Positions 5,115 to 23,427 are shown, counted from the first letter of the stretch. The stretch is 33,764 nt of DNA from Planctomycetota bacterium (GCA_031382605.1 JANMYZ010000162.1:1-33764); one strand, 5' to 3'. Made by a program: numbers and translations. Notes: generated by a model from the sequence alone, not told the origin.

Positions 5115-5125
5115 GCGAAAGATTG

Positions 5126-6131: not shown

Positions 6132-6166
6132 GATTGGGCACTTTCGAGAACGAGACAGGATAGAGT

Positions 6167-6625
6167 TCAGGGACCGGCAAGGATGGCCGATCGCAGGCGG
6201 AGGCGGATGGTAGTGCGCCCGTTGGTGCGTCCAGTCTCAAGAACCAATCGCTCTTGTCCCTTGTGCCACTGGAGTTTATCGGAGTGATTCGGTGCCGCTA
6301 TCCAGCCACGCGAGGTCAAATCTCGTTCCATCTCATCCAATAACTCGACGGCGGGCTGCTGCTTGGCTGATTCGCGTTGTTCCATAACCACTTCAAATCG
6401 ACGAACGCTTCCGCCCGCGAGGGTTACGGCAAGCTGATCCTCACCAGGGCTGAATGCATAACCGCGTGGCAGCGGGATGTCGGAAAATTGTTCCGGTGAA
6501 AACGCTGCCGGACCAGCGGCAGGAGGAAGCGCTCGCGGTTCTTCGCTGCAGCTCATCAACATAAAAACGGCTACGGTGCTGGTGAAAAAAGCGCAGCCTA
6601 GCCGGCCGAAACGTAGCGCGGTCAT
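6167..6625 (-). CDS. lipoprotein (unknown function)
   Basis: I trimmed the start to the ATG at 6623-6625 (MTALRFGRLGCAFFTSTVAVFMLMSC). This gives a signal peptide with the lipobox L-M-S-C. The start overlaps the stop of the FHA gene in an ATGA arrangement. Confidence 0.65.
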   Translation of the reverse strand: MTALRFGRLGCAFFTSTVAVFMLMSCSEEPRALPPAAGPAAFSPEQFSDIPLPRGYAFSPGEDQLAVTLAGGSVRRFEVVMEQRESAKQQPAVELLDEMERDLTSRGWIAAPNHSDKLQWHKGQERLVLETGRTNGRTTIRLRLRSAILAGP

Positions 6626-7314: not shown

Positions 7315-7514
7315 GCGAGACTCCTGCGAGGCGAGGACCATATTTTGGCGGAGCTGATGGTCAATGTTGGCTCGTAAGGCGTGGCGCACGACATGACTAC
7401 CGACCAATTGCCAGAGGGGGCGTTCGTTGAGTGAAACGAAGGTGTCGTGAGGTTGCATGGACTGATGCTTGCAAGACGAAAGGAGGTCGCCAGCATCCCT
7501 CGCCTTCGCAAACG

Positions 7515-7587
7515 GCTCCCATCGTCTAGAGGCCTAGGACACCAGATTTTCATTCTGGCGACACGAGTTCGAATCTCGTTGGGAGTA
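7515..7587 (+). tRNA. tRNA-Glu: tRNA-Glu (anticodon UUC), CCA not encoded
   Basis: The sequence is GCTCCCATCGTCTAGAGGCCTAGGACACCAGATTTTCATTCTGGCGACACGAGTTCGAATCTCGTTGGGAGTA. It has the Glu-type D-arm GTCTAGAGGCCTAGGAC, anticodon stem CCAGA/TCTGG, loop TTTTCAT and T-loop GTTCGAATC. The discriminator A is followed by ctt. Confidence 0.9.
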
Positions 7588-7651: not shown

Positions 7652-10600
7652 TCACTGATGCGCCTGGATGTCAGCGGCATCCATACGCGCAGCGAGCTGT
7701 TGTCCAAGTGCGCCGACGAGTGGTTCACGGCAAAAGGTAATATGGTCGCCGGGTGATTCGATGAGCTTGATGCCATCTTTAGCCCATGACCTCCATTCCA
7801 TACGTGGGTCATCTTCAGGACGTTCTGAAAGGAAGGTGTCCTTGGCTAACACCAACGTCACGCGGCCGGGGAAAACTTTCGGCGCGAAGTCACGGTAGAT
7901 TTCAGGGCCGCCTTCACCGCGGAAAGTATCCAGTGTTCGTCGTCTCACATTGGTGATTCTCTGCCTCAGGTACGTCATTGCGGAGAGCGGTGAAGATTGA
8001 TTCCACATTTTCCCAAAATGGTACCGTACGCGGTCACTGAAGCGATTTTTATCACTGCGAAATGTTGGGTCTGGTGGATCGAGGAGCGCGAGAAAAGAAG
8101 TTCGCTCGCCTTGGCTTTCGAGAAGATTCGCGATGGCGAAGGCGACGGTAGCGCCGAAGCAATGGCCTCCGAGCTGGTATGGTCCAGTTGGTTGTACGCG
8201 CCGCATGGAAGCGACGCATTGAACGGCAATGTTGGCAAAAGTAATTTCTGTCGTTTTGCGCTCTGCAGGCCAATCCAATGCATAGACTGGACGGTCATCA
8301 CCCAGATGGCGTGCGACATCGAGAAAACCACCGATGAAAAAGAATGGCCGGCGTTTGCCCTTGGCCTGCACAGTGACCAATAGTGGATCAGCGATTGGGG
8401 TCGCGAATACGCCTCGTTGGTTGAGCCGTTGGGCAAGGCTTCGGAGTGTCCGAGCCTCAAATACATCGCGCAATTCCAAAGAGATTGGCGAAACGTGACT
8501 CCATTGCGCCATCAGCCGGCCAGCCAGCAGCGAGTGCCCACCGAGTGCAAAGAAATCATCGTTGGCGCTGACTTTTTCCACGCTCAGAAGTTTGGCCCAT
8601 AATTCGACGAGACGTTGTTCGGTATCGCCCATCGGTGGAGTATAGGTATTTTGATTCGCGATGAGCGCGGGCGCAGGCAAACGGTTGCGATCGACTTTGC
8701 CATTCGGTGAGAGCGGCAAGGCATCAATGGTAACTAAAGCTTCAGGCACCATGTAAGGAGCGAGTATTTTTCCGGTATGTGCGACGATCGCATCAAGATC
8801 GATCGTCATGGTTGGTTTGAGTACGACGTAAGCGACCAAACGCATGGCGACTTTGCGATCACCGCAGGCAGCAACGACGCAGGATTTTACTGCGGGATGC
8901 GTAGCGAGAGCGGCTTCGACTTCGCCAAGTTCGACGCGATAGCCACGAATTTTGACCTGATGGTCAATGCGTCCAAGAAACTCGATGGTGCCATCAGCTA
9001 AATGTCGACCGAGATCGCCGGTTCGATAGAGCCGTTTTCCGCTGCGCGGATGGGTGATAAAACGTTCCGCGGTGCGCTGTGGATCTTTCCAATAGCCAAG
9101 TGCTACGCCCACGCCGCCGATGGCAATTTCTCCAGGGATGAGCGGCGGGCACGGTTCCAGCGCGTCATCAAGAACGTGCATGGTTTGATTACGCAGAGGT
9201 CCACCGTACGGGACGCTGGGTGCACGCAGATTCAGACGATCGGTGGGATGCAGAATCGACCAGATCGATCCTTCGGTGGCGCCGCCAAGGGAAAAGACTT
9301 GGCAATGCGGAGCTAGGGCGCGCAAGCGTCCTGGGAGAGTCACCGCGATCCAGTCGCCGCTGAACATAGCTAAGCGTAGCGTTGCCAGCGCAGATACGTT
9401 ATCGACGAAAGGCAGCAGCATTTCCATTAATGCCGGCACAGTATCCCACATGGTTACTCGTTCGCTGGCCATCAGTTCGAGCCACGCAGGCGGATGACGA
9501 AGCGCGGTCCCGACCGGAAATATTGCCGCGCCGCCAGCAGCCAAAACGCCAAAGGCGTCGTACACCGACAGATCAAAGGTTGCCGAGGACAGTGCGAGTA
9601 CGCGATCCGTTACGGTCACAACAAAGCGATCATTGAGATCAATAATCGTGTTGACCACCGCACGATGTGAAATAACCACGCCTTTGGGTTTTCCAGTCGA
9701 TCCCGAGGTGTAAATAATGTACGCGGGATCATCAAGCGTTGCGGGACACGGCGGCAGAGTTGACTCACCATGTTTCAAATCAATTTTATCAAGGTCGATC
9801 AATTCGGCTGGAGTAGCACCGAGAACCGACGATTGCCCACGGTGTGTAATCAATATTTGACATCCAGCACTGGCAAGAATCCAGGCCAAGCGATCGGGCG
9901 GATGCGTAGGATCAAGCGGAACATAAGTGCCACCTGCCATCATTATGGCGAGAGCGCAAACCACACCGACGGGTCCGTGCTCAGCGAAAATGGCCACCGG
10001 AGTCGAGCGACTGACGCCACGTTCTTGGAGTATCCGTGCTAAGCGTGCCGCTTGTTGGCAAAGATCCTGATGTGTCAGGCGTGCGTCGCCACCAACCAGG
10101 GCCAAGGCATTGGGCGTGCGAAGGCTTTGCGCCCATAAGAGATCGTGCAGTCGCTCACCCAGGTTTGGATGAGTCCATTGCGTGGCGTTATAAGTGGTTT
10201 CTAAAAAGCTCTGCCATGCGGGCTCGGCCAATGTGATCTCTGCGAGACGTGCCTGAGGTTGTGCGATGAAGCGAGCAAGCGTGGTGGTCAATACGGCGAG
10301 TACTTGTTCTGCGAAAGCTGCGTCCCAGCGCGTCGCATCATAAATGAAATTGAGATTGAGTTCGTCGCCGCCATTGGCTTCTAGCGTCAGTGGCGTGTTG
10401 GGGCGCGAAATCACGCGTACCTGTCGGCGATTCCACTCGGCATTTCGGCTACGTAGCGAGGAAATGAAATCGGCTGATTCGAACATCAAGATGACATGAA
10501 AGAGCGGTGTGCCGAGCGGTACTTGGCTGTTGGACTGTACGGCGATTAAATTGTCTAACTCATGGTGAGCATGATCACGTTGTTCGGCTCGCAGTTTGGT

Positions 10601-11503
10601 AAGAAGTTCTCCAACGGTTTGCTGTGCGCTCAAACCAACGCAGAAAGGCAGGGTGTTCATGAGCAATCCGACCTGAGTCTCAGCCCCAGGTACGGGCGCA
10701 TGTCGGCAGGCGCGGACGTTGCCGAATGCGATGTGGTCTTCTCGCGCATAACGTCCGAGCGTCATCGCTAAGGCGGCTTGTACGCAATTGTTCAGCGTCG
10801 CGCCGTGTGCGGCTGCGACCGCGCGAAGAGCTGCCGTTTGTGTACGATCGAGTCGTTTCTGTACCTGGCCAAAAGCACCAGGAGTCACGTCTATTGGTGA
10901 GACGAATGGGGCCGGCAGCGGCGTTGGTGCGCGCAACGAATCGAGGCGTTGTCGCCAGAATGCGTGATCAATCTGAGATTCGTGTGCGCGAACATAGTGA
11001 GCAAAGGTTGAAAATTCGCATGGTGGTGGGCCAAGCGTCTGACCGTTGGCGAGTGCGAACCAATCATCCAAAACGATGAGGATGGAGCGACCATCAAGTA
11101 ATGCGTGAGGAAAGCTCCACACCATCGTCCAGGTTTCAGGATCGGTGCGTGCCACGATCAGACGATGTAATGGCGGAGTATTGGTATCGATTCCGGCGTG
11201 GCGATCGTTGGCTAAATAACGGTTGAGCTCGACCTCAGGATTGGCGCTCCAATCCACAATTGATGATGTAATAATCAGGCGCTCATCAATGACTTGGACC
11301 GGGCCCGCATCATCCCATCTGAAGTGACTTCGGAGCACGGGGTGACGATCAGCGACGGCACGAAATCCCTGAACAAGCTGATCGGGGTGGAGGTCGGTTG
11401 GGAAATTAACCACCACTTGCTCCAGATCAAAACCATGACCTGGGTTGAGCTGCTGATTGATAAGCATGCCCTCTTGGAGAGGGGTTGTTTGAAAATGACT
11501 CAT
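7652..11503 (-). CDS. non-ribosomal peptide synthetase, C-A-T-TE
   Basis: I trimmed the start to the ATG at 11501-11503 (MSHFQTTPLQEGML).
- C domain, ~10214-11491: motif PHALLDGRS.
- A domain, ~8669-10156: AYIIYTSGSTGKPKGV, FDLSVYD, SGDWI, SLGGATE, YRTGDLGR, KIRGYRVELGEVE, PNGKVDR.
- T domain, ~8420-8626: FFALGGHSLL.
- TE domain, ~7694-8371: elbow GGHCFG with the Cys codon at 8159-8161, plus LLDPPDP and SPGDHITF. Confidence 0.93.
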   Translation of the reverse strand: MSHFQTTPLQEGMLINQQLNPGHGFDLEQVVVNFPTDLHPDQLVQGFRAVADRHPVLRSHFRWDDAGPVQVIDERLIITSSIVDWSANPEVELNRYLANDRHAGIDTNTPPLHRLIVARTDPETWTMVWSFPHALLDGRSILIVLDDWFALANGQTLGPPPCEFSTFAHYVRAHESQIDHAFWRQRLDSLRAPTPLPAPFVSPIDVTPGAFGQVQKRLDRTQTAALRAVAAAHGATLNNCVQAALAMTLGRYAREDHIAFGNVRACRHAPVPGAETQVGLLMNTLPFCVGLSAQQTVGELLTKLRAEQRDHAHHELDNLIAVQSNSQVPLGTPLFHVILMFESADFISSLRSRNAEWNRRQVRVISRPNTPLTLEANGGDELNLNFIYDATRWDAAFAEQVLAVLTTTLARFIAQPQARLAEITLAEPAWQSFLETTYNATQWTHPNLGERLHDLLWAQSLRTPNALALVGGDARLTHQDLCQQAARLARILQERGVSRSTPVAIFAEHGPVGVVCALAIMMAGGTYVPLDPTHPPDRLAWILASAGCQILITHRGQSSVLGATPAELIDLDKIDLKHGESTLPPCPATLDDPAYIIYTSGSTGKPKGVVISHRAVVNTIIDLNDRFVVTVTDRVLALSSATFDLSVYDAFGVLAAGGAAIFPVGTALRHPPAWLELMASERVTMWDTVPALMEMLLPFVDNVSALATLRLAMFSGDWIAVTLPGRLRALAPHCQVFSLGGATEGSIWSILHPTDRLNLRAPSVPYGGPLRNQTMHVLDDALEPCPPLIPGEIAIGGVGVALGYWKDPQRTAERFITHPRSGKRLYRTGDLGRHLADGTIEFLGRIDHQVKIRGYRVELGEVEAALATHPAVKSCVVAACGDRKVAMRLVAYVVLKPTMTIDLDAIVAHTGKILAPYMVPEALVTIDALPLSPNGKVDRNRLPAPALIANQNTYTPPMGDTEQRLVELWAKLLSVEKVSANDDFFALGGHSLLAGRLMAQWSHVSPISLELRDVFEARTLRSLAQRLNQRGVFATPIADPLLVTVQAKGKRRPFFFIGGFLDVARHLGDDRPVYALDWPAERKTTEITFANIAVQCVASMRRVQPTGPYQLGGHCFGATVAFAIANLLESQGERTSFLALLDPPDPTFRSDKNRFSDRVRYHFGKMWNQSSPLSAMTYLRQRITNVRRRTLDTFRGEGGPEIYRDFAPKVFPGRVTLVLAKDTFLSERPEDDPRMEWRSWAKDGIKLIESPGDHITFCREPLVGALGQQLAARMDAADIQAHQ

Positions 11504-11767
11504 TGGGTGAGCATACCTTGTTTTGAGGCATTCACATATACGTGGTTGATGGCAGCGTTGGATAACATGGAAGTTTTTTAGCCGAAAGGGGACAAGTGTG
11601 CGATGTAACGATGTTTTGACCACTACATCAAGAGTGGCGAGAGGATGAGCCCTTGGATCCGTTTATGATCGTTTGCAAGTGAAGGCGCGCAGAGTGCGGC
11701 GAATCGCGAATTTTCCTGCCTCGATAATCGGTCATCAAACGTCAGTCGATGAATCACGGCAAGCAAA

Positions 11768-12667
11768 TCACGCATCGTAGAGCGAAGCGCGGCCCCGGTT
11801 GCGGCCACCAAGTATCTTCAAGAGCCTCTGGCTTCGCAGGAACGAACGATAACCCCAGACGAAAAATGGGTTGTATTTGTTCATGCCCATAGTGATTTCT
11901 TTGATCACCTCGTTCCAATTGGTGTGGTTGGCGAAATTCAGCGCGACCGAGATGCTCGGCCCCAATAATCGCGTCGTATGCCACCAACCGGTGGGCAGGA
12001 TGACAATCTCTCCGGGTTCCTGCACGAAACGCACGAATTTTGCCTGTGCCAGCAAGGGAAAGCGCGTCAGGTCGGGTTCGTAAATGTTGGTGATGCGTGA
12101 TATCCGGCCATCGGCGTAGAGGAATGGCGTCTGGTCCGGAGCGTAGATGGTGAATTCTTTTCGACCGTACAATTGACAGAGGGCGACGTGGCATCCGCCC
12201 CAATCGTAATGCAGCTCGTTCAAACGCGTACCAAACCCACCGATGAAGAGCTCGGGATTGGCAGGGCCGTTCAGCCCATAGTTCACTGAACGCAGGAGGT
12301 ATTTTCCACGCAGCCAATTGGGGAAGACATACGGGATGAACGGATCGATATCGGTTCGCACCGCCGATGGCATGTTCCGAATAAAATGATCTTTCAGGTA
12401 CAGGCACGGATTGGTTGGCGTTGAAGCTATCACCTTGGGCAGGAATTCCCCCAGGGTCGTCTCTTCACCACCGACCACGATTTTTTCCGTGGGATAATGT
12501 GCGAGGAAAAATTCCGGAGTCCATTTTCCGAGCGCGGCCCAGGAATCGAGTGCTCCCGTGATTACTACGGGCACGTGTGGAGCCAGATAATCGCGGAGGT
12601 ATTCGTCGTAGGGAAGACGGTCACGGCGTACGACCGTTGCGGTTGCGCTGATATCCATGGTGGTCAT
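11768..12667 (-). CDS. JmjC / cupin-8 family Fe(II)/2-oxoglutarate-dependent oxygenase (putative tailoring hydroxylase)
   Basis: The 299-aa protein has the facial-triad layout LHYD (H-x-D) ... PTGWWHTT, followed by ISVALNF, which is typical of JmjC/FIH-like cupins. Its ATG (12665-12667) shares one base with the TAA stop of the megasynthase (TAATG). Confidence 0.8.
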   Translation of the reverse strand: MTTMDISATATVVRRDRLPYDEYLRDYLAPHVPVVITGALDSWAALGKWTPEFFLAHYPTEKIVVGGEETTLGEFLPKVIASTPTNPCLYLKDHFIRNMPSAVRTDIDPFIPYVFPNWLRGKYLLRSVNYGLNGPANPELFIGGFGTRLNELHYDWGGCHVALCQLYGRKEFTIYAPDQTPFLYADGRISRITNIYEPDLTRFPLLAQAKFVRFVQEPGEIVILPTGWWHTTRLLGPSISVALNFANHTNWNEVIKEITMGMNKYNPFFVWGYRSFLRSQRLLKILGGRNRGRASLYDA

Positions 12668-15600
12668 TACGGCGTCGCCTTTGCCAGGGTGAGACTTGGG
12701 TCCTGGCTGGGTTTTGTCGTGCCCTGATCAAGACAGCGCCGCAAGAGACCGCCAAGAATACGGACTCCAGGCTCACGGCAGAAAGTCACGTGATCACCGG
12801 GCGATTCATGAATGACCACGCCGTCCGTGCTCCATTGGCGCCACATCAGGCGGGGATCGCGTTCAGGGGTCACGGCCAGGTAGGAGTCCTTGGCCAGCAG
12901 CAGCGTCACTTGCCCCTGGAAGTGCGATGGCTCGAAATCGCGGTAAAGATCATCATCCCCACCATTGAGCAGGCTGCCCGCCATGTGGTTGCTCATATTG
13001 CGCAAACGTGCCCAGCTATAGCTCACCAGACCAAGAGGCCCCTGTTTGGTCAGTTGACGGAGATGGAACCAGACACGATCACGCCAGCGCGGTTTGATTG
13101 CGCACTGGGGCGGATCCGGTGGTTCCATCAGTGCCAGCAGAGCAACCTCTTCGCCAGCCTGCTGGAGTCGAACGGCGATGGAGAAGGCGACGACTGCGCC
13201 GTAACAGTGACCACCGAGCAGATAGGGGCCTCGCGGTTGGATCCGCTTCATGGCGGTGATGCAGCGTTTGGCGATGCTCGCGAAAGTCTCATCGCCTTTC
13301 GTATGTTCCGGACAATCAAGCCCGTAAAAAGGTTGGTCGGGGCCCACATGGCGGGCGATGTCGAGGAAACCGCCGATAAAGAAAAAAGGCGTGCGAGTCC
13401 CCACGGTCTGCAATGGCTGTAGAAGCGTGTCCGAAGGCAGTTTCTCAGGGTTACCACCAGCCAATTCCTGGGCTAGTTCTGCGATGGTCGGATGCGCGAA
13501 AATAGTCGTGAGCGGGACCTTGCGACCAAAGCTCGCCTCTAAACGCAGCGCCAGTTTCATCGCCAGCAGGGAATGCCCGCCCAGGGCGAAGAAATCGTCC
13601 GTGGTGTTGATGGCGACACCGGGGAACAATGCGCGCCATTGCTCTGCGATCTGTTCTTCGGTACCTGCCCTGGGTGGAACGGTTGGCGTTGCCTGGGTCG
13701 TCTGTGCCGGAACTGGAGCAGGAAGTGCCTTGCGATCAATCTTGCCGTTCGGGGTGAGTGGGAGCTCACCGAGGATGATGATCGCGGAGGGCACCATGTA
13801 GATTGGCAACAAACCGCGCAGATGACGACGCAGGTCGGCGGCCGAGGCCTCCGTCCCGCGATGCAAGGCGACATAGGCGATGAGGTTGGCGTCCGCCTGC
13901 CCAGCCGTGCGCAGGGCTACGACCACCCGTTGAGATATCGCCGGATGGCTGGCGAGTGCGACTTCGATGTCTCCCAGTTCGATGCGGAATCCTCGGATCT
14001 TGACCTGGTGATCGCTGCGTCCGAGGTATTCGATGCGTCCATCCGTGTGGTAGCGACCGATGTCGCCCGTGCGGTAGAGTTGGCGTGATCCTCCCTGGGC
14101 GAACGGGTCGGGAATGAAACGGGCCGTGGTCTGCTCTGGAAGACCCACATAGCCATGGGCCAGGCCATCGCCGCCGATGTAGAGCTCGCCGGGCACGCCG
14201 ATCGGTACGGGACGCAGGCGTTGGTCCAGTAGGTGCAAGCGGGTGTTCGCTACCGGGGTGCCCATCAAGACTGCGCTGGTTCCGCGCTCCACGCGATCGA
14301 GCGACGAATAGACCGTGGTTTCGGTGGGGCCGTAGCCGTTCCACAGTTCGCCAGCACGTGCGAGCAACGCATCCGCCAGATCACGCGGGATGGCTTCACC
14401 GCCGCACCACAGGCGGATGCGGCCATCACCTTTCCAGCCGGCCTCCAACAACATGCGCATGGTCACGGGCGTGGCTTGGAAAATCGTCGCACGACTGCTG
14501 TCCAACAGTTCGATCAGTCGTCGTGGGTCAGCGGCGGCCTCGCGTTCTGCAAGGACGATGCGTGCACCCACCGACAACGGCAGCAGTAGTTCTGCCACAT
14601 GGATATCGAAGGACAGCGTGGTGATCGCCAGCAGGGTGTCGCGCGCCGTGATGCCCGGCCGTTCACGCATCGAGCTCAGCAGATTGACCACCGCACGGTG
14701 GGGCACCTGGACCCCTTTGGGGCGACCGGTGGAGCCGGAGGTAAACAGCAGGTAGGCGAGGTCCTCTGGTACGACAGTCACGCGCGGCGCTTCACCGTCC
14801 GGTAGGCGCTGCTCCCAACCCGAGTCCATCAGGACAGTGGTGGTCTCGTGCCGAGAGAACGGTGCCCACTCCGTGGTCTGGGTGATCACCAGCGCCGGAC
14901 GGGCGTCTTCGAGAATCTGGGTGATGCGATGGTCGGGATAACGGGAATCGAGCGGCACATAGCAGGCACCAGCCTTGAGCACTGCCAGCACAGCGATTGG
15001 GAGCGCCGTGGTGCGTGGTAGGCAGATTGCCACCGGTGCCGTCCGGCTGGCGCCACGGGCAACGAGCTGTGCCGCCAAGCGCGTCGAAAGTTGATCGAGC
15101 GCGCGGTAGGTAAGGCGCTCTTCGCCCGCCACCACCGCGATGGCCTCCGGGGTTGCCGCCGCCTGTTGGGCGATGAGGTCGTGAACCGCGCGGTCCTTGG
15201 GATATTCCCGCGCCGTCGCGTTCCAGGTTTCCAGAATCTGGGTGCGCTCTGGCGCAGACAGCAGTTCCAGATCGCCGATCATCCGCGTCGGATCACGGGC
15301 CGCGTCATCAGCTAACGTCAGAAAATGACCGAGCCATCGGCGGATGGTGCTCGGCTCGAACAAATCGCGATTGTAGTGACAACACAGAGTCAGGCCCTGA
15401 TCAGTTTCCATCAAATTGAAATCGATGTCGAAGACCACACCAGCCTTGGCGTTGAGCTCGACCGTGGAGCGCAATCCGGAAAGCCCAAGATCTTTGAAAC
15501 CCGCCCGGTCGAAGTTGAACAATGCGGAGAGCAGAGGTGGGCGTGCAGGATCACGCGGCAGGGTGAGCGATTCCAACAGGCGGCCGTAGGTGATGTCCGG

Positions 15601-18600
15601 ATGTTCCTGGGCATCGAGCACCGCATCACGGACCGAGCGCAGTGCCGTCGCGAAGGGCGTATTCGCCGTCATCGACAACCGCAGGGGCAGGAAGTGCACA
15701 CAGTGGCCCGCAAGGCGGTCGACGCCCATCAACAACTGGCCGGCGGAGGGGATACCGATCACCAGGTCATCCTGGTGGCTGAGGCGAGACATCAGCGCGG
15801 TGAATGCCGCAAGCATGCCGGCGAATACGGTTGCTCCGCTGCGGCCGCAGACCTGTTGCATGCGCCGGTAGGCCGTTGCGTCCACCAACAGGCGTTCGGT
15901 GGCACCAGCGAAGGTGCGCGACGGACGTCGCGGATGGTCGAGGGGCAGATCAAGGTCCGGTGGCGACTCTCTGAACAGCGACCGCCAATGATCAAGCGAC
16001 ACGCGCCCCTCGGGACCATCGCGGCGTGCACTCTGCCACGCGGCGTAGGCATGGTACGGCACCGCTGCCGGCAAGTTCAGCGGCAGTCCGGTGACCAGCG
16101 CGCTGTAACACTGGCCGAGTTCATTGATCACCACGGCGAACGACCAGCCATCACACACCAAGTGATGAGTGATCAGTATGAGCACGTGGCGTTCTGATCC
16201 CAGGCGCACGAGCGAAGCACGCAGAAGTGGTGCGCAGGTCAGATCGAAGGGCGTAGCGGTGAGGGCGGCCCGGTGTTGCTCCAAACGTTGTTGGTTGTCG
16301 CCACTGGCGAGATCCACCAGCGGCAGATCCACCGCTACCTGGGCGACGAAGCGCTGGCATTCCCCGTCGGCATCGAAGCGCGACCGCAGGGCTGGATGCC
16401 GGTCGACCACCTGCTGCAAAGCCAGACGCAAGCGCGCGTGATCGAGCGGTCCATCGAGATGGAGCAGCACACCATCGTTGAAGGCGACACTCGCTTCCGG
16501 CGACAACTGCGAGGCGACCCACAACTCGCGTTGCACCTCGGTGAGTGGCAGCTGCTCCGCTAACGGCATGACGATGCTGGAGGTGTCGTCGCTCGGGCTT
16601 GGCTGCGCTGCGACGATGGCCACGACGGCGGGAACGGATTCCGGTGAAGTCTTTTCCTGAGCGGGATCTGGTGTTGTGCCACTCGCGGGGAGGAAGCCGC
16701 CGTCCGTCAGTTCCTGCAGACTGCCTTCCACCGCACGGATGAAGAGGTCGATTTCAGCATCGCCATGAGCGGTGGTCAGGAAGCAGGGGAAACCTTCCCA
16801 GATATGGATGCCACGCAGGCGCAGCAAATAATGCAGCAGACTGAGCATGCGATGTTTTGGTGCGAAGGCGAAGTAGAAGACCGAACCGAAGCGCTGCACG
16901 AATGATGGAACGCCATACTTTTTGAACAGTCCGTTGAGCGCATCTACCAAGCGCGTCGTGCGGCGGTTGAGGGCTTCCTGCAATGCCGGGCCTTGTTCCT
17001 TGAGGTGCACCAAGCACGCCTTGGCCGCCGCCATCGCCAACGGATGACGTACGAAGGTGCCGGCAAAGAACGTGACACCGATCTCGGGGAAGGAGTCGTC
17101 ACCGAAGCGCCATTGGCCGCCGTCGAGGGCATCCATGAAGCGGTTGGTGCCGGCGAGTATGCCGATGGGATGACCACCGCCGATGACTTTACCGTAAGTT
17201 GCCAGATCGGCCTTTACGCCGAACACACCCTGCGCGCCACGTGGATGTACTCGGAAGCCGGTGATGACCTCGTCCATGATCATCGCCGTGCCGCTGGCGG
17301 CAGTTATGCGACGGACCTCGTGGAGGAATTCTTTCGGTTGGAGATCCGGATGGCGGCTCTGCACCGGCTCGATCAAGACAGCGGCGAGATCATCGGCGCG
17401 TGCGCGGATGATCTCCAACGCCTGCTGGCTGCCGTACTCCAGGATGATGATGTTGTCGACTTTGCCTTGCGGAATACCTGGGGCGATCGGTGCGGAACGT
17501 AGGTCGTTGCCACGGTGGTTAGGACGTACCAGTACTTCATCGAAGGTGCCGTGGTAGTCGCCCAAAAACGAGACGATCGTGCTGCGTCCGGTGACCGTGC
17601 GGGCCAAGCGCATGGCGGCCATCACCGCTTCCGAGCCGGTGTTGCAGAAAGTTGCGCGTTCCAGGCCGGTGAACTCACTGACAAGTTTGGCGACTTCGCC
17701 GGCGAGTGGGGTCTGTGGACCAACTTCGATTCCAGCACTGAGTTGTTTGGTCACCGCATCGTTGACGAAATCCGGGGAGTGACCGAACAGGCTCGAACCG
17801 AAACCGTTGAGGATGTCGATGTACTCGTTGCCGTCCACGTCCCACAGACGTGCGCCCTTCGAGCGCACCGCCACCAGTGGATACACCATCTCCTTCCACT
17901 GTTGACGGAATCCCGCAACCACGCGGGGATCTGCTAAATATTCACGATGATGTTGCGCTTGGCGTTTGGATTCCTTGGTCTTCGCGGTGTAACGCACGAT
18001 GAAAGCATCGAGCCAACGTTGTTGATGCTCGGTGAGTCCGCCCGTGGGCCCGCGGGTAATCGGCTTGTAGGGACCAAACGCTTTGAATTCACCGGGCGCG
18101 GCAGGTTGCGCGGCGGAGGCTTCCGCCGCGCTTGGCGCAGCTGCCATGCCAGCGGTGCCACCGCTGAGTTGAGCCATCTGTTTGGACAACTCAGCAAGCT
18201 GCCGCTGCATCTGGTCCAGCATCGGATTACCGGTCGTGGCAGCGGGAGCGTCAGCCGCGCTCACGCCAACAGTGGGCAGCAGCGCGGGAGCCGCATGGTG
18301 TTCCACATATTCAGCAAGGCGCGCAACCGTACCGAGCTCATCGAGCAAGTGACGGAAGCTGATCTTGATCTTGAAACGTTGCTGGAGTGCGAGCGCGAAT
18401 TGGGTGAGGAACAACGAATCAAAACCTAATTCGATAAAGCTGATAGCGGTATCGGTTGCGCGATGATCAGCGCCGGATTGTTCCGACACCAATTGGCGCA
18501 GCAGTTCGATCAGCGCCGTATGGCGATCGCCGCTGGTGGCAGGCGCTGCCGTCACGGTCGCTGCTGCGGTGGTGGCCTGGTTTGCTGTCAGATCGGCGGT

Positions 18601-21261
18601 TGTCGTTGCCGCGTCGATTGGCGGTGGCTCTACCCAGTAGCGGCTACGCTCAAACGGATAGGTCGGCAACGGCGTGCGCGCTGGGCGTGCGGGATGGAAC
18701 TTCGCCCAAGCGAGCGGGACACCGGCGAGCCACAAGCGCCCGGCGGCATCGGCTAGCTCAGCCGCGTCGCCTGGTGATTCGGTTTCGCCCGTGGTGGGCA
18801 AGGTCGCTACCACGGAACGTCGATCACTGGTGGGCAGACATTGACGCGCCAAACCAGCAAGCGTGCGACCAGGACCGACTTCGAGCAGTGCCAGGCGTTG
18901 ATCAGCGGTGATGGTCGCAACACCCGCAGCGAAGCGCACGGCTTCGCGCACGTGGCGTACCCAATACTGCGGATCGGTCGCCTGTGCCGTCGTGATCCAG
19001 GTGCCGGTTACGCCAGAGATGAACGGAATGGTCGGAGCGCTGAACTGAACATCACGTAGATGCTCGGCAAATGCTGGCAGCATGCCGTCCATCATTGCCG
19101 AGTGGAAGGCATGCGAGGTGGTCAGGTGGCGTGCGGCGATTCCGCGTCCGACGAGATCACTTTCAAAGGCGGCGATGGCCTCCGCTCCGCCTGCGATCAC
19201 GCAGGACGCGGGGCCGTTGCTGGCGGCGAGCGAGAGTGGTTTGCCGGCGATCAGTGGGAGCAGTTCCGCTTCGCCAAGTCGCACCGCCAACATTGCGCCG
19301 CCGGGCAGGGCCTGCACCAGTTTGCCACGCACCGCCACGGCACGCATGGCGGTGGCAAGGGGCATGACGCCAGCAAGGCAGGCAGCGACGTATTCGCCGA
19401 CGCTGTGGCCGATCATCGCGGCTGGAGTCACACCCCGTGCGAGCCACACCTGCGCCAGCGCATACGACGTGGCGAACAAGGCTGGCTGGGTGTATCGCGT
19501 CTGGATGAGATCGCTGGCGCGGGCGGGATCGAACAGCACGGCGCGCAGGTCTGGACATTCGTTGGCCACGGCAGCCAAACACTCATCCAGGGCAGCGCGG
19601 AATCGTGGCTCGTCGCGATAAAGTCCGGCAGTCATGCCGGCACGTTGCGCACCTTGGCCTGGGAAAAGGAAGGCCACTGGTGTGTCGTCAGCAGCACATT
19701 CTGCGGTCGGTACGGTGGTCCCATCACGCAGCCGTGCGCTGGCGCCAGCGGCATCGCGCGCCACCACCATCGCGCGGTGAGCGAACGTGCGGCGACCGGT
19801 CTGGAGCGTCCACGCCACATCGGCCAACGGGATGGTTGGAACGCTGTCGAGATGTTTGGCGAGTCGTTCTCGCATCGCTGCCAGTGCGGCGGGCGTACGC
19901 GCTGACAACACCAATACCTGCGGCGTATTGCTGGCGACAGGCGCCGTGGTCGGCGGTTGTTCGATGATCACGTGGGCGTTGGTGCCGCCGACGCCGAAGG
20001 AACTGACACCAGCGCGACGAGGTCCGCTGATCGCGGGCCACGGCGAACGCGTGGCGTTCACGCGGAAGGGCGTCTTGGTGAAATCGATCTTGGGATTGGG
20101 ACGACGGAAATGCAGGCTGGCCGGAATGACGCCGTGTTGGACGGCAAGCGCAGCTTTGATCAGTCCCGTGACGCCGGAAGCGACTTCTAGATGACCGAGG
20201 TTGGTCTTCACCGAACCAATGGCGCAATAATTCGTGGCTTCGGTAGTGGCACGGAAGGCCCGCGTCAACGCTTCGACTTCGATCGGATCACCGAGCGGCG
20301 TCGCGGTGCCGTGGGCCTCGACATAGCCAATGCTGTCAGCGGTAATGCCAGCAAGAGAGTGGGCGAGCGCGATGACCTCGGCCTGACGTTCAACGCTTGG
20401 CGCCATGTAACCAACTTTTTGCGCGCCATCGTTGTTGAGCGCCGCACTGCGGATCACAGCGACGATCCGATCACCATCCGCGAGGGCATCTTCCAAACGT
20501 TTGAGCGTTACCAACGCGACGCCGCTGCCGAACACCGTGCCCTGTGCGTCAGCATCGAAGGCGCGGCAGTGGCCATCGCCGGAAACCATGCCGCCTTCCA
20601 TGAAGTGGTAGCCGCGTTCCTGCGGGAAGGTGATCGACACGCCACCGGCCAAGGCCACGTCGCATTGGTAGGACAGCAGCGACTGGACCGCTTGCGTAAC
20701 CGCCACCAGCGACGTCGAGCACGCGGTCTGGAGCGTCATGCTGGGACCACTGAGGCCAAGTTTATAGCTGATGCGGGTGGTGAGGTAATCTTTGTCGTTA
20801 CCGAGCACCGTTGGGTAACTGCCAACCTGATAGTCGCAGGTCAGACGTTCGAGGAACGAACGATCACTGCTGAGATTGGCCAGCAAATACGTCGGGAAAC
20901 TCTGGCCGGCGTAAACCCCGATCGCGCCTGTGTATTGCCTGGGATCGCAACCCGCGTCTTCCAAGGCTTCCCAGGCACATTCCAGCAGTAAGCGATGCTG
21001 GGGGTCCATGAGTTCCGCTTCACGCGGCGTGATGCCGAAAAAGCCAGCGTCGAAGAGATCGGCTCCGGCGAGGACGCCGCGGGCGTTCACTTGCTCAGCA
21101 TCACCTGGATTGCGCACCTGATCCTGGGCGAATCGTGTTATGGACTCGATCCCAGCCAGAAGATTGGTCCACAATTCAGCAACCGAAGTCGCCCCAGGAA
21201 AGCGACCAGCCATGCCAATGATTGCCACTGCGGGGGCACTTATCTGTTCATTCATGTTCAT
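12667..21261 (-). CDS. hybrid type I PKS-NRPS megasynthase: KS-AT-ACP-aminotransferase-C-A-T-TE
   Basis: 2864 aa.
- KS, ~19957-21234: TACSTS Cys181, EAHGTATPLGD His316, KTNLGH His357.
- AT, ~18727-19680: GHSVGE Ser620, with HAFH 717-720 indicating a malonyl type.
- ACP, ~18292-18528: LGFDSL Ser949.
- Class-III PLP aminotransferase, ~16702-18039: CNTGSEAVMAAMRLAR, IMDEVITGFR, TYGKVIGGG Lys1358.
- C, ~15247-16569: HHLVCDGWS.
- A, ~13717-15189: LLFTSGSTGRPKGV, NGYGPTETT, YRTGDIGR, KIRGFRIELGDIE, PNGKIDR.
- T, ~13462-13665: FFALGGHSLL.
- TE, ~12727-13404: GGHCYG with the Cys2686 codon at 13204-13206, plus SPGDHVTF. Confidence 0.95.
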   Translation of the reverse strand: MNMNEQISAPAVAIIGMAGRFPGATSVAELWTNLLAGIESITRFAQDQVRNPGDAEQVNARGVLAGADLFDAGFFGITPREAELMDPQHRLLLECAWEALEDAGCDPRQYTGAIGVYAGQSFPTYLLANLSSDRSFLERLTCDYQVGSYPTVLGNDKDYLTTRISYKLGLSGPSMTLQTACSTSLVAVTQAVQSLLSYQCDVALAGGVSITFPQERGYHFMEGGMVSGDGHCRAFDADAQGTVFGSGVALVTLKRLEDALADGDRIVAVIRSAALNNDGAQKVGYMAPSVERQAEVIALAHSLAGITADSIGYVEAHGTATPLGDPIEVEALTRAFRATTEATNYCAIGSVKTNLGHLEVASGVTGLIKAALAVQHGVIPASLHFRRPNPKIDFTKTPFRVNATRSPWPAISGPRRAGVSSFGVGGTNAHVIIEQPPTTAPVASNTPQVLVLSARTPAALAAMRERLAKHLDSVPTIPLADVAWTLQTGRRTFAHRAMVVARDAAGASARLRDGTTVPTAECAADDTPVAFLFPGQGAQRAGMTAGLYRDEPRFRAALDECLAAVANECPDLRAVLFDPARASDLIQTRYTQPALFATSYALAQVWLARGVTPAAMIGHSVGEYVAACLAGVMPLATAMRAVAVRGKLVQALPGGAMLAVRLGEAELLPLIAGKPLSLAASNGPASCVIAGGAEAIAAFESDLVGRGIAARHLTTSHAFHSAMMDGMLPAFAEHLRDVQFSAPTIPFISGVTGTWITTAQATDPQYWVRHVREAVRFAAGVATITADQRLALLEVGPGRTLAGLARQCLPTSDRRSVVATLPTTGETESPGDAAELADAAGRLWLAGVPLAWAKFHPARPARTPLPTYPFERSRYWVEPPPIDAATTTADLTANQATTAAATVTAAPATSGDRHTALIELLRQLVSEQSGADHRATDTAISFIELGFDSLFLTQFALALQQRFKIKISFRHLLDELGTVARLAEYVEHHAAPALLPTVGVSAADAPAATTGNPMLDQMQRQLAELSKQMAQLSGGTAGMAAAPSAAEASAAQPAAPGEFKAFGPYKPITRGPTGGLTEHQQRWLDAFIVRYTAKTKESKRQAQHHREYLADPRVVAGFRQQWKEMVYPLVAVRSKGARLWDVDGNEYIDILNGFGSSLFGHSPDFVNDAVTKQLSAGIEVGPQTPLAGEVAKLVSEFTGLERATFCNTGSEAVMAAMRLARTVTGRSTIVSFLGDYHGTFDEVLVRPNHRGNDLRSAPIAPGIPQGKVDNIIILEYGSQQALEIIRARADDLAAVLIEPVQSRHPDLQPKEFLHEVRRITAASGTAMIMDEVITGFRVHPRGAQGVFGVKADLATYGKVIGGGHPIGILAGTNRFMDALDGGQWRFGDDSFPEIGVTFFAGTFVRHPLAMAAAKACLVHLKEQGPALQEALNRRTTRLVDALNGLFKKYGVPSFVQRFGSVFYFAFAPKHRMLSLLHYLLRLRGIHIWEGFPCFLTTAHGDAEIDLFIRAVEGSLQELTDGGFLPASGTTPDPAQEKTSPESVPAVVAIVAAQPSPSDDTSSIVMPLAEQLPLTEVQRELWVASQLSPEASVAFNDGVLLHLDGPLDHARLRLALQQVVDRHPALRSRFDADGECQRFVAQVAVDLPLVDLASGDNQQRLEQHRAALTATPFDLTCAPLLRASLVRLGSERHVLILITHHLVCDGWSFAVVINELGQCYSALVTGLPLNLPAAVPYHAYAAWQSARRDGPEGRVSLDHWRSLFRESPPDLDLPLDHPRRPSRTFAGATERLLVDATAYRRMQQVCGRSGATVFAGMLAAFTALMSRLSHQDDLVIGIPSAGQLLMGVDRLAGHCVHFLPLRLSMTANTPFATALRSVRDAVLDAQEHPDITYGRLLESLTLPRDPARPPLLSALFNFDRAGFKDLGLSGLRSTVELNAKAGVVFDIDFNLMETDQGLTLCCHYNRDLFEPSTIRRWLGHFLTLADDAARDPTRMIGDLELLSAPERTQILETWNATAREYPKDRAVHDLIAQQAAATPEAIAVVAGEERLTYRALDQLSTRLAAQLVARGASRTAPVAICLPRTTALPIAVLAVLKAGACYVPLDSRYPDHRITQILEDARPALVITQTTEWAPFSRHETTTVLMDSGWEQRLPDGEAPRVTVVPEDLAYLLFTSGSTGRPKGVQVPHRAVVNLLSSMRERPGITARDTLLAITTLSFDIHVAELLLPLSVGARIVLAEREAAADPRRLIELLDSSRATIFQATPVTMRMLLEAGWKGDGRIRLWCGGEAIPRDLADALLARAGELWNGYGPTETTVYSSLDRVERGTSAVLMGTPVANTRLHLLDQRLRPVPIGVPGELYIGGDGLAHGYVGLPEQTTARFIPDPFAQGGSRQLYRTGDIGRYHTDGRIEYLGRSDHQVKIRGFRIELGDIEVALASHPAISQRVVVALRTAGQADANLIAYVALHRGTEASAADLRRHLRGLLPIYMVPSAIIILGELPLTPNGKIDRKALPAPVPAQTTQATPTVPPRAGTEEQIAEQWRALFPGVAINTTDDFFALGGHSLLAMKLALRLEASFGRKVPLTTIFAHPTIAELAQELAGGNPEKLPSDTLLQPLQTVGTRTPFFFIGGFLDIARHVGPDQPFYGLDCPEHTKGDETFASIAKRCITAMKRIQPRGPYLLGGHCYGAVVAFSIAVRLQQAGEEVALLALMEPPDPPQCAIKPRWRDRVWFHLRQLTKQGPLGLVSYSWARLRNMSNHMAGSLLNGGDDDLYRDFEPSHFQGQVTLLLAKDSYLAVTPERDPRLMWRQWSTDGVVIHESPGDHVTFCREPGVRILGGLLRRCLDQGTTKPSQDPSLTLAKATP

Positions 21262-21312
21262 TTATTTCCGCTATTTGCTCATTTGTGGCGCGAGCTGCTG
21301 ATGTGGCGCGAG

Positions 21313-23238
21313 CTACCGAAGCCCTGGTTTGAACTGATTAGCGCGAGAACGCAATTGCTGTTGCTGACGAAGCAGAGCGTTTCGTTGCTGTATTCCACGT
21401 ACGGTGGCGCTTGCCGCGACCACCGACGCGGTGTCTGAGGCTAGGTTTTCGGCCAGGGATCGCACGGTGGGATGTTCGAACAGCAGGGTGATGGTCAACT
21501 CGCGACCCAACTCCCGACCGAGGCGTTCGTGTACCTGGGTCAGCAGCAATGACGTGCCACCCAGATCAAAGAAGTTGTCGTCGCGGCCGATCTCTGATTG
21601 CCGCAAAATCTCGCACCAAACCGCCACCAGACGACGTTCTAGATCGGTGGTCGGCGCTTGATAGGCAGCCGCCAATTGGGTGCGGTCAATGGCCACTGCC
21701 GGCAGCGCCCGGCGGTCCACCTTGCCGCTGGGAGTCAACGGCAGGCGCTCAAGTACCGCCACCGCAGAGGGCACCTGATAGTCCGCTAACGTCGCGGCGC
21801 ACCATGCGCGTAGGATGGCTGGAGTCGGATGAGCGCCTGGACGTGCCACGACGTAACCGATCAGACGGAGATCACCCGGAGCAAACTCGCGAGCGACTAC
21901 GGCGGCTTCGGCTACGGCCTCATGCCGGGCGAGAACGGCTTCGATTTCTCCAGGTTCAATGCGGAAACCACGGATCTTCACCTGATCGTCAGCACGACCA
22001 AGAAATTCGAGGTCACCGTTGGTATTGAGACGCGCAAGATCACCGGTGCGGTAGAGGCGTTCATCGACACCAGCGGGCGCAGCCGTGACAAAACGCTCTG
22101 CCGTCAAATCGTCACGTCCCAGGTAACCCTGCGCTAAGACCGGGCCGCCCACATACAGTTCGCCCGGCTCACCCTCAGCGACTGGGCGTTGATCGGCATC
22201 CAGTAGGTGGACGCGTGCGCCGGTGATCGGTTTTCCAATCGGCGGCAATTCAGGCCACAGAACGGAATCGCCGCTGAGGTCATGGCTGGTAACCACATGC
22301 GTTTCGCTCGGTCCATATTGGTTAACAAGCGTGCAGCCGGGAAGGCGCGCGAACCACGCACGCAACGCCGGAGTAATACGTAGGGTCTCGCCGGCGGTGA
22401 TGATTTCGCGCAGTGACCACGACAGCCCTGGTGCTTGAAATGCGCTCTCTGCCAATTGCTGCAAGGCGACGAACGGAAGGTAGAGTCGTTCGACCCGTTC
22501 CTGTGAAAGGAAACGCAACAACGCCGATGGGTCCCGCCGCAGGCGCTCGTTGATCAGCACCAGACAGCCGCCGGTAGTCCACGTGGCGAACAGTTCCTGA
22601 AAAGACACATCGAAACTGAGCGAAGCGAATTGCAGCGTCCGTCCTCCGGACTGCATGGGCGAAACACGGTTTTGCCACGCGATCAGATGAGCGAGTGGCC
22701 CATGCGGCATGGCGATGCCTTTGGGCCGGCCAGTCGAACCACTGGTGAAAATCACGTATGCTAGGTCTTCTGCAGAGGGTGCCTTTAGGGAAGACCACGG
22801 GACCGCATGCGAATGGTCATCATCGATAAAAATCTCGATAACGCCGAGTGCGCTTAACGAACCATGAAGTGCACGTTGCGTCAGTAAGACGCGCGCGCCG
22901 CAAGACTCCAACATGTAGGCACGGCGATCCTGTGGGTACGTTGGATCGATGGGGACATAAGCACCACCAGCCAGCAGCACGGCCAGCACGGCAATGACCG
23001 ATTCCGGGCTGCGCTCCGCGTGCAAGGCCACTCGCGCATTTCGCGTAATTCCGTGGTGATGCAAAATAGCAGCCAACTGCTCGGCACGCTGGTAGAGTGT
23101 GCGGTAAGTGATTTCCCCACCAACTCCAGCGAGCGCCGGCAGGTCAGCAAACGTTTCTACGCGAAGACGTACGTCCACAATCACGACGGCATCGGCCTCG
23201 GTTGTTTCAGGGGGCATGGTGCACGAGGGGTAGAACAA
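21313..23238 (-). CDS. stand-alone NRPS loading didomain, A-T
   Basis: 641 aa. The A-domain cores are AYVIFTSGSTGRPKGI, FDVSFQE, NQYGPSETHV, YRTGDLAR, KIRGFRIEPGEIE and PSGKVDR. The carrier domain is FFDLGGTSLLL, with the Ser codon at 21550-21552. The start could instead be Met8 (23217). Confidence 0.9.
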   Translation of the reverse strand: MFYPSCTMPPETTEADAVVIVDVRLRVETFADLPALAGVGGEITYRTLYQRAEQLAAILHHHGITRNARVALHAERSPESVIAVLAVLLAGGAYVPIDPTYPQDRRAYMLESCGARVLLTQRALHGSLSALGVIEIFIDDDHSHAVPWSSLKAPSAEDLAYVIFTSGSTGRPKGIAMPHGPLAHLIAWQNRVSPMQSGGRTLQFASLSFDVSFQELFATWTTGGCLVLINERLRRDPSALLRFLSQERVERLYLPFVALQQLAESAFQAPGLSWSLREIITAGETLRITPALRAWFARLPGCTLVNQYGPSETHVVTSHDLSGDSVLWPELPPIGKPITGARVHLLDADQRPVAEGEPGELYVGGPVLAQGYLGRDDLTAERFVTAAPAGVDERLYRTGDLARLNTNGDLEFLGRADDQVKIRGFRIEPGEIEAVLARHEAVAEAAVVAREFAPGDLRLIGYVVARPGAHPTPAILRAWCAATLADYQVPSAVAVLERLPLTPSGKVDRRALPAVAIDRTQLAAAYQAPTTDLERRLVAVWCEILRQSEIGRDDNFFDLGGTSLLLTQVHERLGRELGRELTITLLFEHPTVRSLAENLASDTASVVAASATVRGIQQRNALLRQQQQLRSRANQFKPGLR

Positions 23239-23416
23239 TCATTGGTGGAACCACGGTCGAAACGGCCTGGATATCGATAATCAGTGATGCGGTGCTGGTG
23301 GTGATGGTGGCCGACAAGTTCGTCGCCGTCACCGAAAACGTCGTGCTGAGTGTCCCAGTCGGAGGTGTACCGCCAACCAAACCAGTAGGCGCATTCGAAG
23401 TTAGCCAAGAAGGCAA
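23207..23416 (-). pseudogene. relic of a He_PIG (putative Ig) repeat, out of frame with and downstream of the beta-helix gene
   Basis: The translation (L)PSWLTSNAPTGLVGGTPPTGTLSTTFSVTATNLSATITT matches the repeat GLPSWLTFTANTGLITGTPPSVGAFSFTVTATNSVGADTQS in the protein encoded at 23428..26304. The track's initial M is really a TTG (Leu) codon. There is no signal peptide or independent start context, and the 3' end overlaps the NRPS loader start. Confidence 0.55.
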
Positions 23417-23427
23417 CCGCCAAATTT

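Follow-up and report, generated by a model that had tools for sequence, protein, structure and literature searches.

Why should a megasynthase that already ends in a complete thioesterase (TE) be followed by a further synthetase that starts with a condensation (C) domain and carries a TE of its own? This question is raised by a cluster of four co-directional genes in a DNA stretch of 33,764 nucleotides from a Planctomycetota bacterium (GCA_031382605.1, JANMYZ010000162.1:1-33764), here called the window. The cluster occupies positions 7,652 to 23,238. Gene g1 encodes a loading didomain with an adenylation (A) and a thiolation (T) domain. The megasynthase g2 combines a polyketide synthase (PKS) module of ketosynthase (KS), acyltransferase (AT) and acyl carrier protein (ACP) with an in-line aminotransferase (AmT) and a nonribosomal peptide synthetase (NRPS) module C-A-T-TE. 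g3 encodes a predicted JmjC oxygenase and g4 a single module C-A-T-TE. The TE of g2 is named TE1 and that of g4 TE2. A preliminary description of the sequence had offered three explanations for the second TE: two separate products, an internal TE that transfers, edits or cyclises, or an older resident g4 coupled to an imported assembly line. We lean towards two TE-terminated lines lying side by side, with two release points, over one line with an internal TE. Two release points are favoured because each unit occurs alone in related genomes, because both TEs are functional by their features and under selection, and because g4 outlives the megasynthase.

Both TEs look functional from their residues, their selection and, for TE1, a predicted fold. 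Each has the features of a type I integrated TE (PF00975), namely a GxS/CxG elbow, an acidic residue about 27 residues further on and a C-terminal His. The triad of TE1 is formed by Cys2686 (13206-13204), Glu2713 and His2824 with the nucleophile motif GGHCYGA, and that of TE2 by Cys1115, Asp1142 and His1254 (numbering of the 1283-aa protein) with GGHCFGA. The nucleophile at both elbows is thus Cys and not Ser, which was unexpected. HMMER alignments place this Cys opposite the catalytic Ser in EntF and 7crn and opposite a Cys in AB3403, and Glu2713 of g2 and Asp1142 of g4 fall on the catalytic Asp of all three. An AlphaFold2 model of TE1 has a mean pLDDT of 77.6 with a confident core, and its best fold matches are type I TEs (7dxo, the Pks13 TE, AB3403, the fatty acid synthase TE, NocB and EntF). 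The ratio of nonsynonymous to synonymous substitution rates (dN/dS) is 0.12 for TE1, compared between the related loci L011 and L012, both of which have g4 downstream, and 0.11 for TE2, compared between the window and L011. These values resemble those of the other cluster domains. The preliminary description had allowed that the megasynthase TE could be a degenerate remnant lacking its triad. This was looked at and is ruled out by the intact triads, the purifying selection on both TEs and the normal type I fold.

The two units also occur independently of each other. Searches with g2 return proteins of the same architecture, about 2830-2950 aa long and ending in a TE, with at most 50-54% identity and no informative name. 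In L007 and L010 a GT2 gene, a further glycosyltransferase gene and two beta-helix protein genes precede [A-T][megasynthase-TE], in the same synteny as in the window, and genes for an FHA protein, for two small proteins and for an MreB-like protein follow on the 3' side. Both loci lack JmjC and C-A-T-TE genes. In L008, glycosyltransferase and sugar transferase genes lead to [A-T][megasynthase-TE] and then to a JmjC gene on the opposite strand, again without a C-A-T-TE. Conversely, distantly related C-A-T-TE proteins of the same Cys-TE type are found without a partner NRPS in P0139/L023, P0162/L018 and L024-L026. L011 and L012 hold both units: [A-T][megasynthase-TE] is followed, after a 227-nt gap, by a g4 orthologue (90% and 74% identical) and no JmjC gene is present.

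Moreover, g4 persists in two loci with a broken megasynthase. The closest relative of the window, L013 (Planctomycetota metagenome-assembled genome JAYVSL010000042.1, 8971-17035; 91-93% nucleotide identity), lacks window positions 20471-11745 and with them g3 and the greater part of g2. Its g1 is intact (97.8% amino acid identity), a KS stub of 265 aa remains, and its g4 is extended to C-A-T-C-A(Gly)-T-TE by an inserted C-A(Gly)-T module. In L020 (JGI Ga0456293_0001629, 1-4857) a resident-type megasynthase breaks off directly behind its C domain; between its stop and a g4-like gene lie some 310 nt of unrelated sequence. That gene has a TE of another type (GFCIGG), whose sister is the TE of megasynthase P0070. 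The junctions in L013 and L020 do not lie at shared repeats, and each is known from one metagenome contig.

Of the three explanations offered earlier, two separate products thus fares best: two releases and two products are the most likely functional reading, given autonomous units and two intact, selected TEs. That TE1 acts as a transfer, editing or cyclisation domain has gained no support, though it may be so. The proposal of an older resident g4 joined to an imported line holds as history and needs two amendments, which concern the replaced line and the JmjC gene. The key comparison is that with L011 and L012. Both come from organisms close to that of the window (the L012 beta-helix protein is 89% identical), and their megasynthases are only about 50% identical to g2, against 87-89% identity of the flanks to L012. 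The L012 homology (87% at the nucleotide level) ends at 23444, just past the stop of the upstream beta-helix gene, and homology to L011 (83%) resumes at 11710, 58 nt below the g3 stop. The interval between these ends is exactly g1, g2 and g3. As homology to these cassette-less relatives resumes at 11710, the downstream boundary of the cassette lies in the g3-g4 gap. The cassette has a GC content of 0.55-0.62 and a GC content at third codon positions (GC3) of 0.62-0.74 (g1 0.62, g2 0.69, g3 0.65), compared with GC3 values of 0.53 for g4 and about 0.51-0.63 for flanking genes. At 0.47-0.54, GC3 of the A-T and megasynthase genes resident in L011 and L012 is like that of their surroundings; a high GC content as a general trait of such genes is thereby ruled out. 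Synonymous divergence (dS) between the window and L013 is 0.07 for g1 and 0.11 for the KS fragment, with 0.34-1.1 for flanking genes, so the cassette is young. Thus it is strongly supported by homology ends, GC3 and dS that a high-GC g1-g3 cassette replaced a homologous resident A-T and megasynthase-TE exactly, with g4 as the resident. The replaced line had its own TE: L011 and L012 hold the two-TE layout at native GC and without JmjC, so the layout predates the import. The layout is old and maintained, and not a by-product of that import.

g3 also arrived with the cassette, as judged from its likeness to the L008 JmjC protein (52.5% identity), its overlap with g2, whose stop codon shares nucleotides with the g3 start (TAATG), and its absence from L011 and L012. 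The g1 protein is 52% identical to the L008 A-T protein, and both loaders carry proline-type codes. JmjC as a partner of g4 is ruled out: it is orthologous to the JmjC protein of a proline-type cluster, coupled to g2, and absent where g4 adjoins the resident line. g3 matches PF13621 at 1e-25, with JMJD5 (1e-17), JMJD6 and FIH as the nearest solved structures. Its iron motif HxD (His153/Asp155 in LHYD) and a distal His in WWHTT are kept in three cluster-associated homologues. In another locus, L017 (1646-3612), a GT2 gene and a tandem pair of Cupin_8/JmjC paralogues (mutual identity 35%, identity to g3 36-37%) immediately precede the genes for an NRPS and for a KS-AT-ACP-AmT megasynthase of 4002 aa. 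JmjC genes therefore recur with this megasynthase family.

Where did TE2 come from? With 23-39% identity, C and A of g4 show no relationship to the corresponding megasynthase domains. T and TE of g4 share 55% and 67-69% of their residues with those of the resident megasynthase, and 39% and 48% with those of g2. Neighbour joining of 26 TE domains pairs the TE2 clade of g4-type proteins with TE1 of the resident megasynthase as sister groups (100% bootstrap), and the window TE1 falls outside this pair. A g4-like protein with a different TE type, P0123, groups with the TE of megasynthase P0070 at 99.5%. With this second case, a megasynthase TE has been donated to a neighbouring single-module gene at least twice. 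Duplication of the whole C-A-T-TE module of g2 is ruled out as the origin of g4; only T-TE is related, and it is nearer to the resident megasynthase than to g2. By these comparisons the ancestor was [A-T][megasynthase-TE], its T-TE was duplicated onto a foreign C-A to give g4, and the window lineage swapped its A-T and megasynthase for the high-GC homologous cassette with JmjC much later.

A profile search with this TE family gave 50,108 proteins at E ≤0.001, and cases of internal TEs were taken from the top 148. P0244, P0248, P0249, P0250, P0255, P0256, P0258, P0261 and P0268 carry an internal TE followed by A-T or C-A-T units and a second TE. One of these polypeptides is A-T-TE-A-T-TE without a C domain, and several end with C, about 650 aa without a Pfam match, and then T-TE. 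In these proteins the TE takes a place normally filled by a C domain.

The domain order given in the preliminary description, A-T / KS-AT-ACP-AmT-C-A-T-TE / JmjC / C-A-T-TE in one direction, is matched by Pfam on the minus strand with E-values from 1e-11 to 1e-87 for the cluster domains. As had been stated, Pfam detects no ketoreductase, epimerisation, methyltransferase or heterocyclisation domain in the cluster, and no dehydratase or enoylreductase either. The reported lack of MbtH-like and phosphopantetheinyl transferase (PPTase) genes is borne out as well: no MbtH motif is present in six frames of the window and no PPTase among its Pfam-scanned open reading frames (ORFs). Independent assemblies from several samples (L001, L002) contain the four genes in this order, which is therefore not an assembly chimera. 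In L001 (1388-10001) g2 is called as two products of 2284 and 597 aa, due to a frameshift or an assembly error there. An ORF for g4 can be read from GTG 11623 (1323 aa); it is probably over-extended, since five independent metagenome copies start g4 at ATG 11503 (1283 aa). With this start a gap of 264 nt follows g3. In the intergenic gaps no promoter or terminator exceeds chance (5 promoter-like sites against 6.1 expected), and Rfam finds no regulatory RNA in them, its window matches being only tRNAs and one borderline small RNA (sRNA).

Catalytic motifs are complete throughout g2. The KS has Cys181 and two His (EAHGT and NLGH). The AT carries GHSVG and HAFH, the latter of which we take to mark the malonyl type, in agreement with the malonyl-type module proposed earlier. 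The carrier serines are Ser949 in the ACP and Ser2564 in the T domain. The AmT is of class III with the pyridoxal phosphate-binding Lys1358 in YGKVIGGG and with DEVITGFR, and the C domain has HHLVCDG. g2 thus contains the hallmarks of an iturin/microcystin-type beta-amino acid module: a condensing KS, an AT, an ACP and an AmT directly before C. In the g4 C domain the motif reads PHALLDG, in which the first His is replaced by Pro and the catalytic His is retained.

Specificity codes were extracted from the A domains by alignment to GrsA-PheA. The g1 code DVQYIAQVVK is identical at 9 of 10 positions to the proline code DVQFIAHVVK of the L008 orthologue, and Val236/Gln239 is a proline signature (PMC12283262). 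Its substrate is thus likely proline-like. The g2 code DIAQWGGVYK seems derived from a glycine code and would select a small amino acid; relatives have DILQLGMVWK (Gly) or DLFWLGGTFK (Val-like). The g4 code DLYDMSVIWK corresponds to the cysteine code DLYN[LM]SLIWK with Asn278 changed to Asp (N278D), which points to a Cys-like amino acid. A literature search for the four codes found no match. The resident loader of the L011/L012 type has the code DLKNFGTICK, and the resident megasynthase selects Gly by its code. As these differ from the codes of g1 and g2, the swap would have changed both building blocks of the first line. The solved structures nearest to the g2 C domain (Txo1/2, TycC6) make it LCL-like. 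For the g4 C domain the nearest are McyB C1, PvdL C1, SrfA-C and TycB1 (DCL-type or acyl-accepting) with E-values from 1e-43 to 1e-31; among starter C domains CDA-C1 gives no match and RzmA-Cs a weak one (8e-6).

From domain order and motifs the following course may be proposed for two parallel lines. g1 would adenylate a proline-like amino acid and load its own T domain. The KS of g2 would take over this starter and extend it with malonate, the AmT would turn the beta-keto into a beta-amino group, and the LCL-type C domain would join the resulting beta-amino acid to one small amino acid. TE1, with its Cys/Glu/His triad, would free the product, which is predicted to be a proline-derived beta-amino acid plus one small amino acid. 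The JmjC oxygenase, translationally coupled to g2, would hydroxylate a residue of this line. In the second line, formed by g4, a Cys-like amino acid would be activated, acylated via the DCL-like C domain and released by TE2 (Cys/Asp/His). Its acyl donor would most likely be the g1-bound starter, with g1 as a shared loader, or else an acyl-CoA. The g1-bound donor is favoured because g1 is the sole upstream carrier in L013, and because in the fused P0250, as in L013, a proline-type A-T directly precedes a C-starting unit. The stand-alone C-A-T-TE relatives favour an acyl-CoA-type donor instead.

Several points weigh against two parallel lines. The substrate predictions come from code matches of 8-9 of 10 positions, and the g2 code has no counterpart in the literature. 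The g4 C domain appears DCL-like, which is unexpected for an L-prolyl donor. With a cassette dS of about 0.1, TE1 may not yet have been tested by selection in this genome. L013 and L020 could be misassembled or dead loci. Among the top 148 of the profile search, P0244, P0249 and P0268 are single C-A-T-TE-C-A-T-TE polypeptides, and in P0256, P0258, P0261 and P0250 a full internal TE is followed by more modules, so that a TE in this family is no proof of a chain end. Finally, the repeated gain of a megasynthase-type TE by g4-like genes hints at functional coupling of the TEs rather than independence. A rival reading is one serial line, in which g4 would accept the beta-aminoacyl-Xaa chain through its C domain from T of g2 and lengthen it by a Cys-like third residue. 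TE2 would then be the real release domain, TE1 an early-release, editing or shuttling domain, and the product a tripeptide, possibly with a shorter shunt. This reading is in keeping with the related proteins with internal TEs and a C-A-T-TE in cis, the position of g4 immediately downstream and co-directional in three lineages, and the megasynthase of L020, which ends after C and is followed directly by a g4-like module. A DCL-like C domain could also take a chain ending in Gly, as the resident megasynthase would make. We nevertheless consider a serial line unlikely. A collinear path from g1 through g2 to g4 is at odds with a g2 that ends in an intact, selected TE and with parts that occur apart in relatives: the megasynthase-TE is complete without g4 in L007, L010 and L008, and g4 persists where the megasynthase is destroyed (L013). 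Purifying selection acts on TE1 even with g4 downstream. g4 also survived a swap that altered both the upstream starter and the last residue. Furthermore, g4 has essentially no N-terminal docking extension, g2 ends in its TE without a C-terminal docking tail, and the 264-nt gap sets g4 apart from the g2-g3 unit.

Rather improbable, in our view, are two lines that converge on one product, as in FR900359. In this case g4 would make an N-acyl amino acid side chain that TE2 transfers onto a hydroxyl or amine of the first product, perhaps the hydroxyl installed by JmjC, or both TEs would transfer onto a common acceptor. The layout corresponds to that of FR900359, where FrsA (C-A-T-TE) and a hydroxylase accompany a main line that has a TE as well; the TEs of FrsA and of the main line are related (PMC7794379). 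TE2 is likewise a duplicate of a neighbouring megasynthase TE, a step taken twice independently, and both TEs share the Cys nucleophile. However, L011 and L012 keep the two-TE layout without JmjC, so a hydroxyl acceptor is no conserved requirement. The g4 C domain appears DCL-like rather than of the usual starter type (CDA-C1 and RzmA-Cs, above), g4 persists where the first line is broken (L013, L020), and transfer activity of a TE cannot be read from sequence. Most doubtful is an evolutionary accident, in which one line is non-functional here after the recent swap, or the locus is silent, and the two TEs have no joint meaning. It would agree with a very young cassette (dS 0.07-0.11 to L013), with the loss of most of g2 and all of g3 in the closest relative L013, with the L001 copy in which g2 is called in two pieces, and with a window lacking PPTase and MbtH genes within the scope given above. 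Against this, every ORF is intact with complete catalytic motifs, the arrangement is recovered from several samples, and L011 and L012 show the layout with two TEs to be old and under selection. Two parallel lines with separate release stay our preferred reading.

The neighbourhood of the cluster raises one more possibility. The synthetase genes lie at the 3' end of an array of glycan-assembly genes, with a polyprenyl-phosphate (WcaJ-like) sugar transferase, a protein with 11 transmembrane helices, glycosyltransferases and two secreted beta-helix proteins, one of which has a signal peptide and a C-terminal anchor. Synteny of the sugar transferase, the multi-transmembrane protein, glycosyltransferases and beta-helix proteins upstream is common to the window, L007, L010 and L013. 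In L008 the stop of the sugar transferase gene overlaps the A-T start. The distant C-A-T-TE gene P0162 sits in the middle of a GT4 operon, P0139 adjoins Wza/Wzc-like genes, and the GT2 gene of L017 stands beside its two JmjC genes and its synthetase genes. In contrast, L024-L026 adjoin an ABC exporter and SelO without any glycosyltransferase, which counts against a link to glycans. As a universal feature of the stand-alone C-A-T-TE relatives the glycan neighbourhood is not upheld (2 of 3 independent contexts). The recurrent placement in glycan arrays, together with the in-line TE relatives, leads to the idea that some TEs of this family transfer rather than terminate. Both TEs might then pass aminoacyl or beta-aminoacyl-peptidyl units to a sugar that is lipid-linked or polymeric, in a Dlt- or Pks13-like manner, and no free small molecules would be made. 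We think this improbable. If true, it would explain the shared TE type of the neighbouring genes and their position at the 3' end of the glycan array. Positions of all window features are collected in Table 1. The block downstream of the cluster is also conserved in L007, L010, L011 and L013. The co-directional array ends at a tRNA gene encoded on the other strand, between the stop of g4 and the FHA gene.

Table 1. Positions of cluster genes, domains and neighbouring features in the window.
Feature	Position	Strand	Size	Basis or remark
g1, stand-alone loading didomain A-T	23238-21313	minus	641 aa	Pfam AMP-binding, AMP-binding_C, PP-binding
g1 A	~23163-21721	minus		
g1 T	~21636-21448	minus		Ser563
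g2, megasynthase KS-AT-ACP-AmT-C-A-T-TE	21261-12667	minus	2864 aa	Pfam order: ketoacyl-synt N + C, KS-AT linker, Acyl_transf_1, PP-binding, Aminotran_3, Condensation, AMP-binding, PP-binding, Thioesterase
g2 KS	21231-20107	minus		
g2 AT	19671-18808	minus		
g2 ACP	~18519-18307	minus		
g2 AmT	17883-16849	minus		
g2 C	16557-15232	minus		
g2 A	15171-13741	minus		
g2 T	13662-13465	minus		
g2 TE1	13413-12670	minus		
g3, JmjC/Cupin_8 Fe(II)/2-oxoglutarate oxygenase (predicted)	12667-11768	minus	299 aa	Pfam
g3-g4 gap	11504-11767	minus	264 nt	
g4, single-module NRPS C-A-T-TE	11503-7652	minus	1283 aa	Pfam Condensation, AMP-binding, PP-binding, Thioesterase
g4 C	11494-10211	minus		
g4 A	10132-8696	minus		
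g4 T	8617-8423	minus		
g4 TE2	8371-7655	minus		
Imported cassette g1-g2-g3	11711-23443	minus	~11.7 kb	homology ends, GC3, dS
Upstream co-directional glycan-assembly genes	23428-33718	minus		overlapping or tightly spaced stops/starts; context, pathway membership not proven
Conserved downstream block	4042-7458			FHA-domain protein, two small membrane proteins, divergent MreB/actin-like gene on opposite strand
tRNA gene	7515-7587	plus		
tRNA gene	1422-1495	minus		
tRNA gene	1522-1594	minus		
Acido-Lenti-1 sRNA match	566-610	minus		Rfam, 37.3 bits (gathering score 37), inside NUDIX ORF 23-694; borderline

If the predictions hold, the first line would yield an unreported scaffold, a 3-amino-3-(pyrrolidin-2-yl)propanoyl unit linked to an amino acid, in an uncultured Planctomycetota lineage. 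The known counterparts of such Cys-TEs form strained lactones and lactams. In addition, the locus and its relatives offer a clean natural record of assembly-line engineering, with a cassette swap, a T-TE duplication, a second TE gain, a module insertion and two truncations, and the breakpoints are natural recombination sites of the kind that NRPS engineers seek.

In protein database names and the literature we found no characterised pathway of this gene order, and in the literature no characterised Planctomycetota cluster of this type, in line with the earlier statement that the architecture was not recognised. The architecture is uncharacterised and yet assembled from known parts. Its PKS part resembles MycA/ItuA of mycosubtilin and iturin, McyE of microcystin and LxaB/LxaE of laxaphycin, in which a non-reducing KS-AT-ACP, a class III AmT and C-A-T follow each other, and the logic of malonate extension, beta-keto transamination and peptide bond formation would be the same. 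Unlike in these systems, the starter of g2 would be proline-like and delivered by a separate A-T instead of a fatty acid or polyketide, the line stops after one NRPS module, the TE nucleophile is Cys and the host belongs to the Planctomycetota. Proline-specific adenylating enzymes that load a carrier before a ketosynthase acts are known from PltF/PltL, PigI/PigG and AnaC/AnaD; in g1, by contrast, A and T are fused. No prolyl oxidase of the acyl-CoA dehydrogenase type is present among the Pfam-scanned window ORFs, so a pyrrole or pyrroline starter is not expected.

Terminal NRPS TEs with Cys at the elbow are also known from ObiF1 (obafluorin beta-lactone), SulM (sulfazecin beta-lactam) and AB3403. 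ObiF1 and AB3403 are, like g4, single C-A-T-TE modules, and AB3403 from Acinetobacter baumannii (PDB entry 4zxh; nucleophile motif GWCFG) is the nearest solved analogue of g4-type modules. The SulM TE has the signature Gln-Cys-Asn, and both TEs here have His-Cys-Tyr/Phe, which is not of SulM type. The diaminopropionate (Dap) code of SulA3, DVWEMNADDK, differs from the g4 code as well, and we saw nothing that points to a beta-hydroxy or beta-amino residue at the C terminus. Ring formation of the sulfazecin or obafluorin type and a Dap substrate for g4, whose defining motifs are absent, are thus only distantly conceivable.

Two TE-terminated lines in one cluster have precedents. In laxaphycin biosynthesis a shared PKS-AmT loader feeds two TE-terminated NRPS lines, and cupin_8 proteins are the proposed residue hydroxylases (PMC7524897). 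The shared part there is FAAL-ACP plus PKS-AmT and both branches are long; in the window, sharing could extend to A-T at most, and one of the branches consists of a single module. In the FR900359 cluster, too, there are two lines, each with a TE, and that of the side line descends from the one of the main line (FrsA, Cstarter-A-T-TE; the hydroxylase FrsH; FrsD-G; PMC7794379). A monomodular C-A-T-TE beside a main line with its own TE, with a hydroxylase in the cluster, is found here too. The C-A-T of FrsA is a near-identical duplicate of the first main-line module, whereas C-A of g4 is foreign; the hydroxylase of FR900359 is a diiron enzyme acting with FrsA, whereas here it is a JmjC protein travelling with the first line. 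What both clusters have in common is a second TE derived from a TE of the main-line type within the cluster, which for TE2 is reflected in its fully bootstrapped sister position to the resident TE1.

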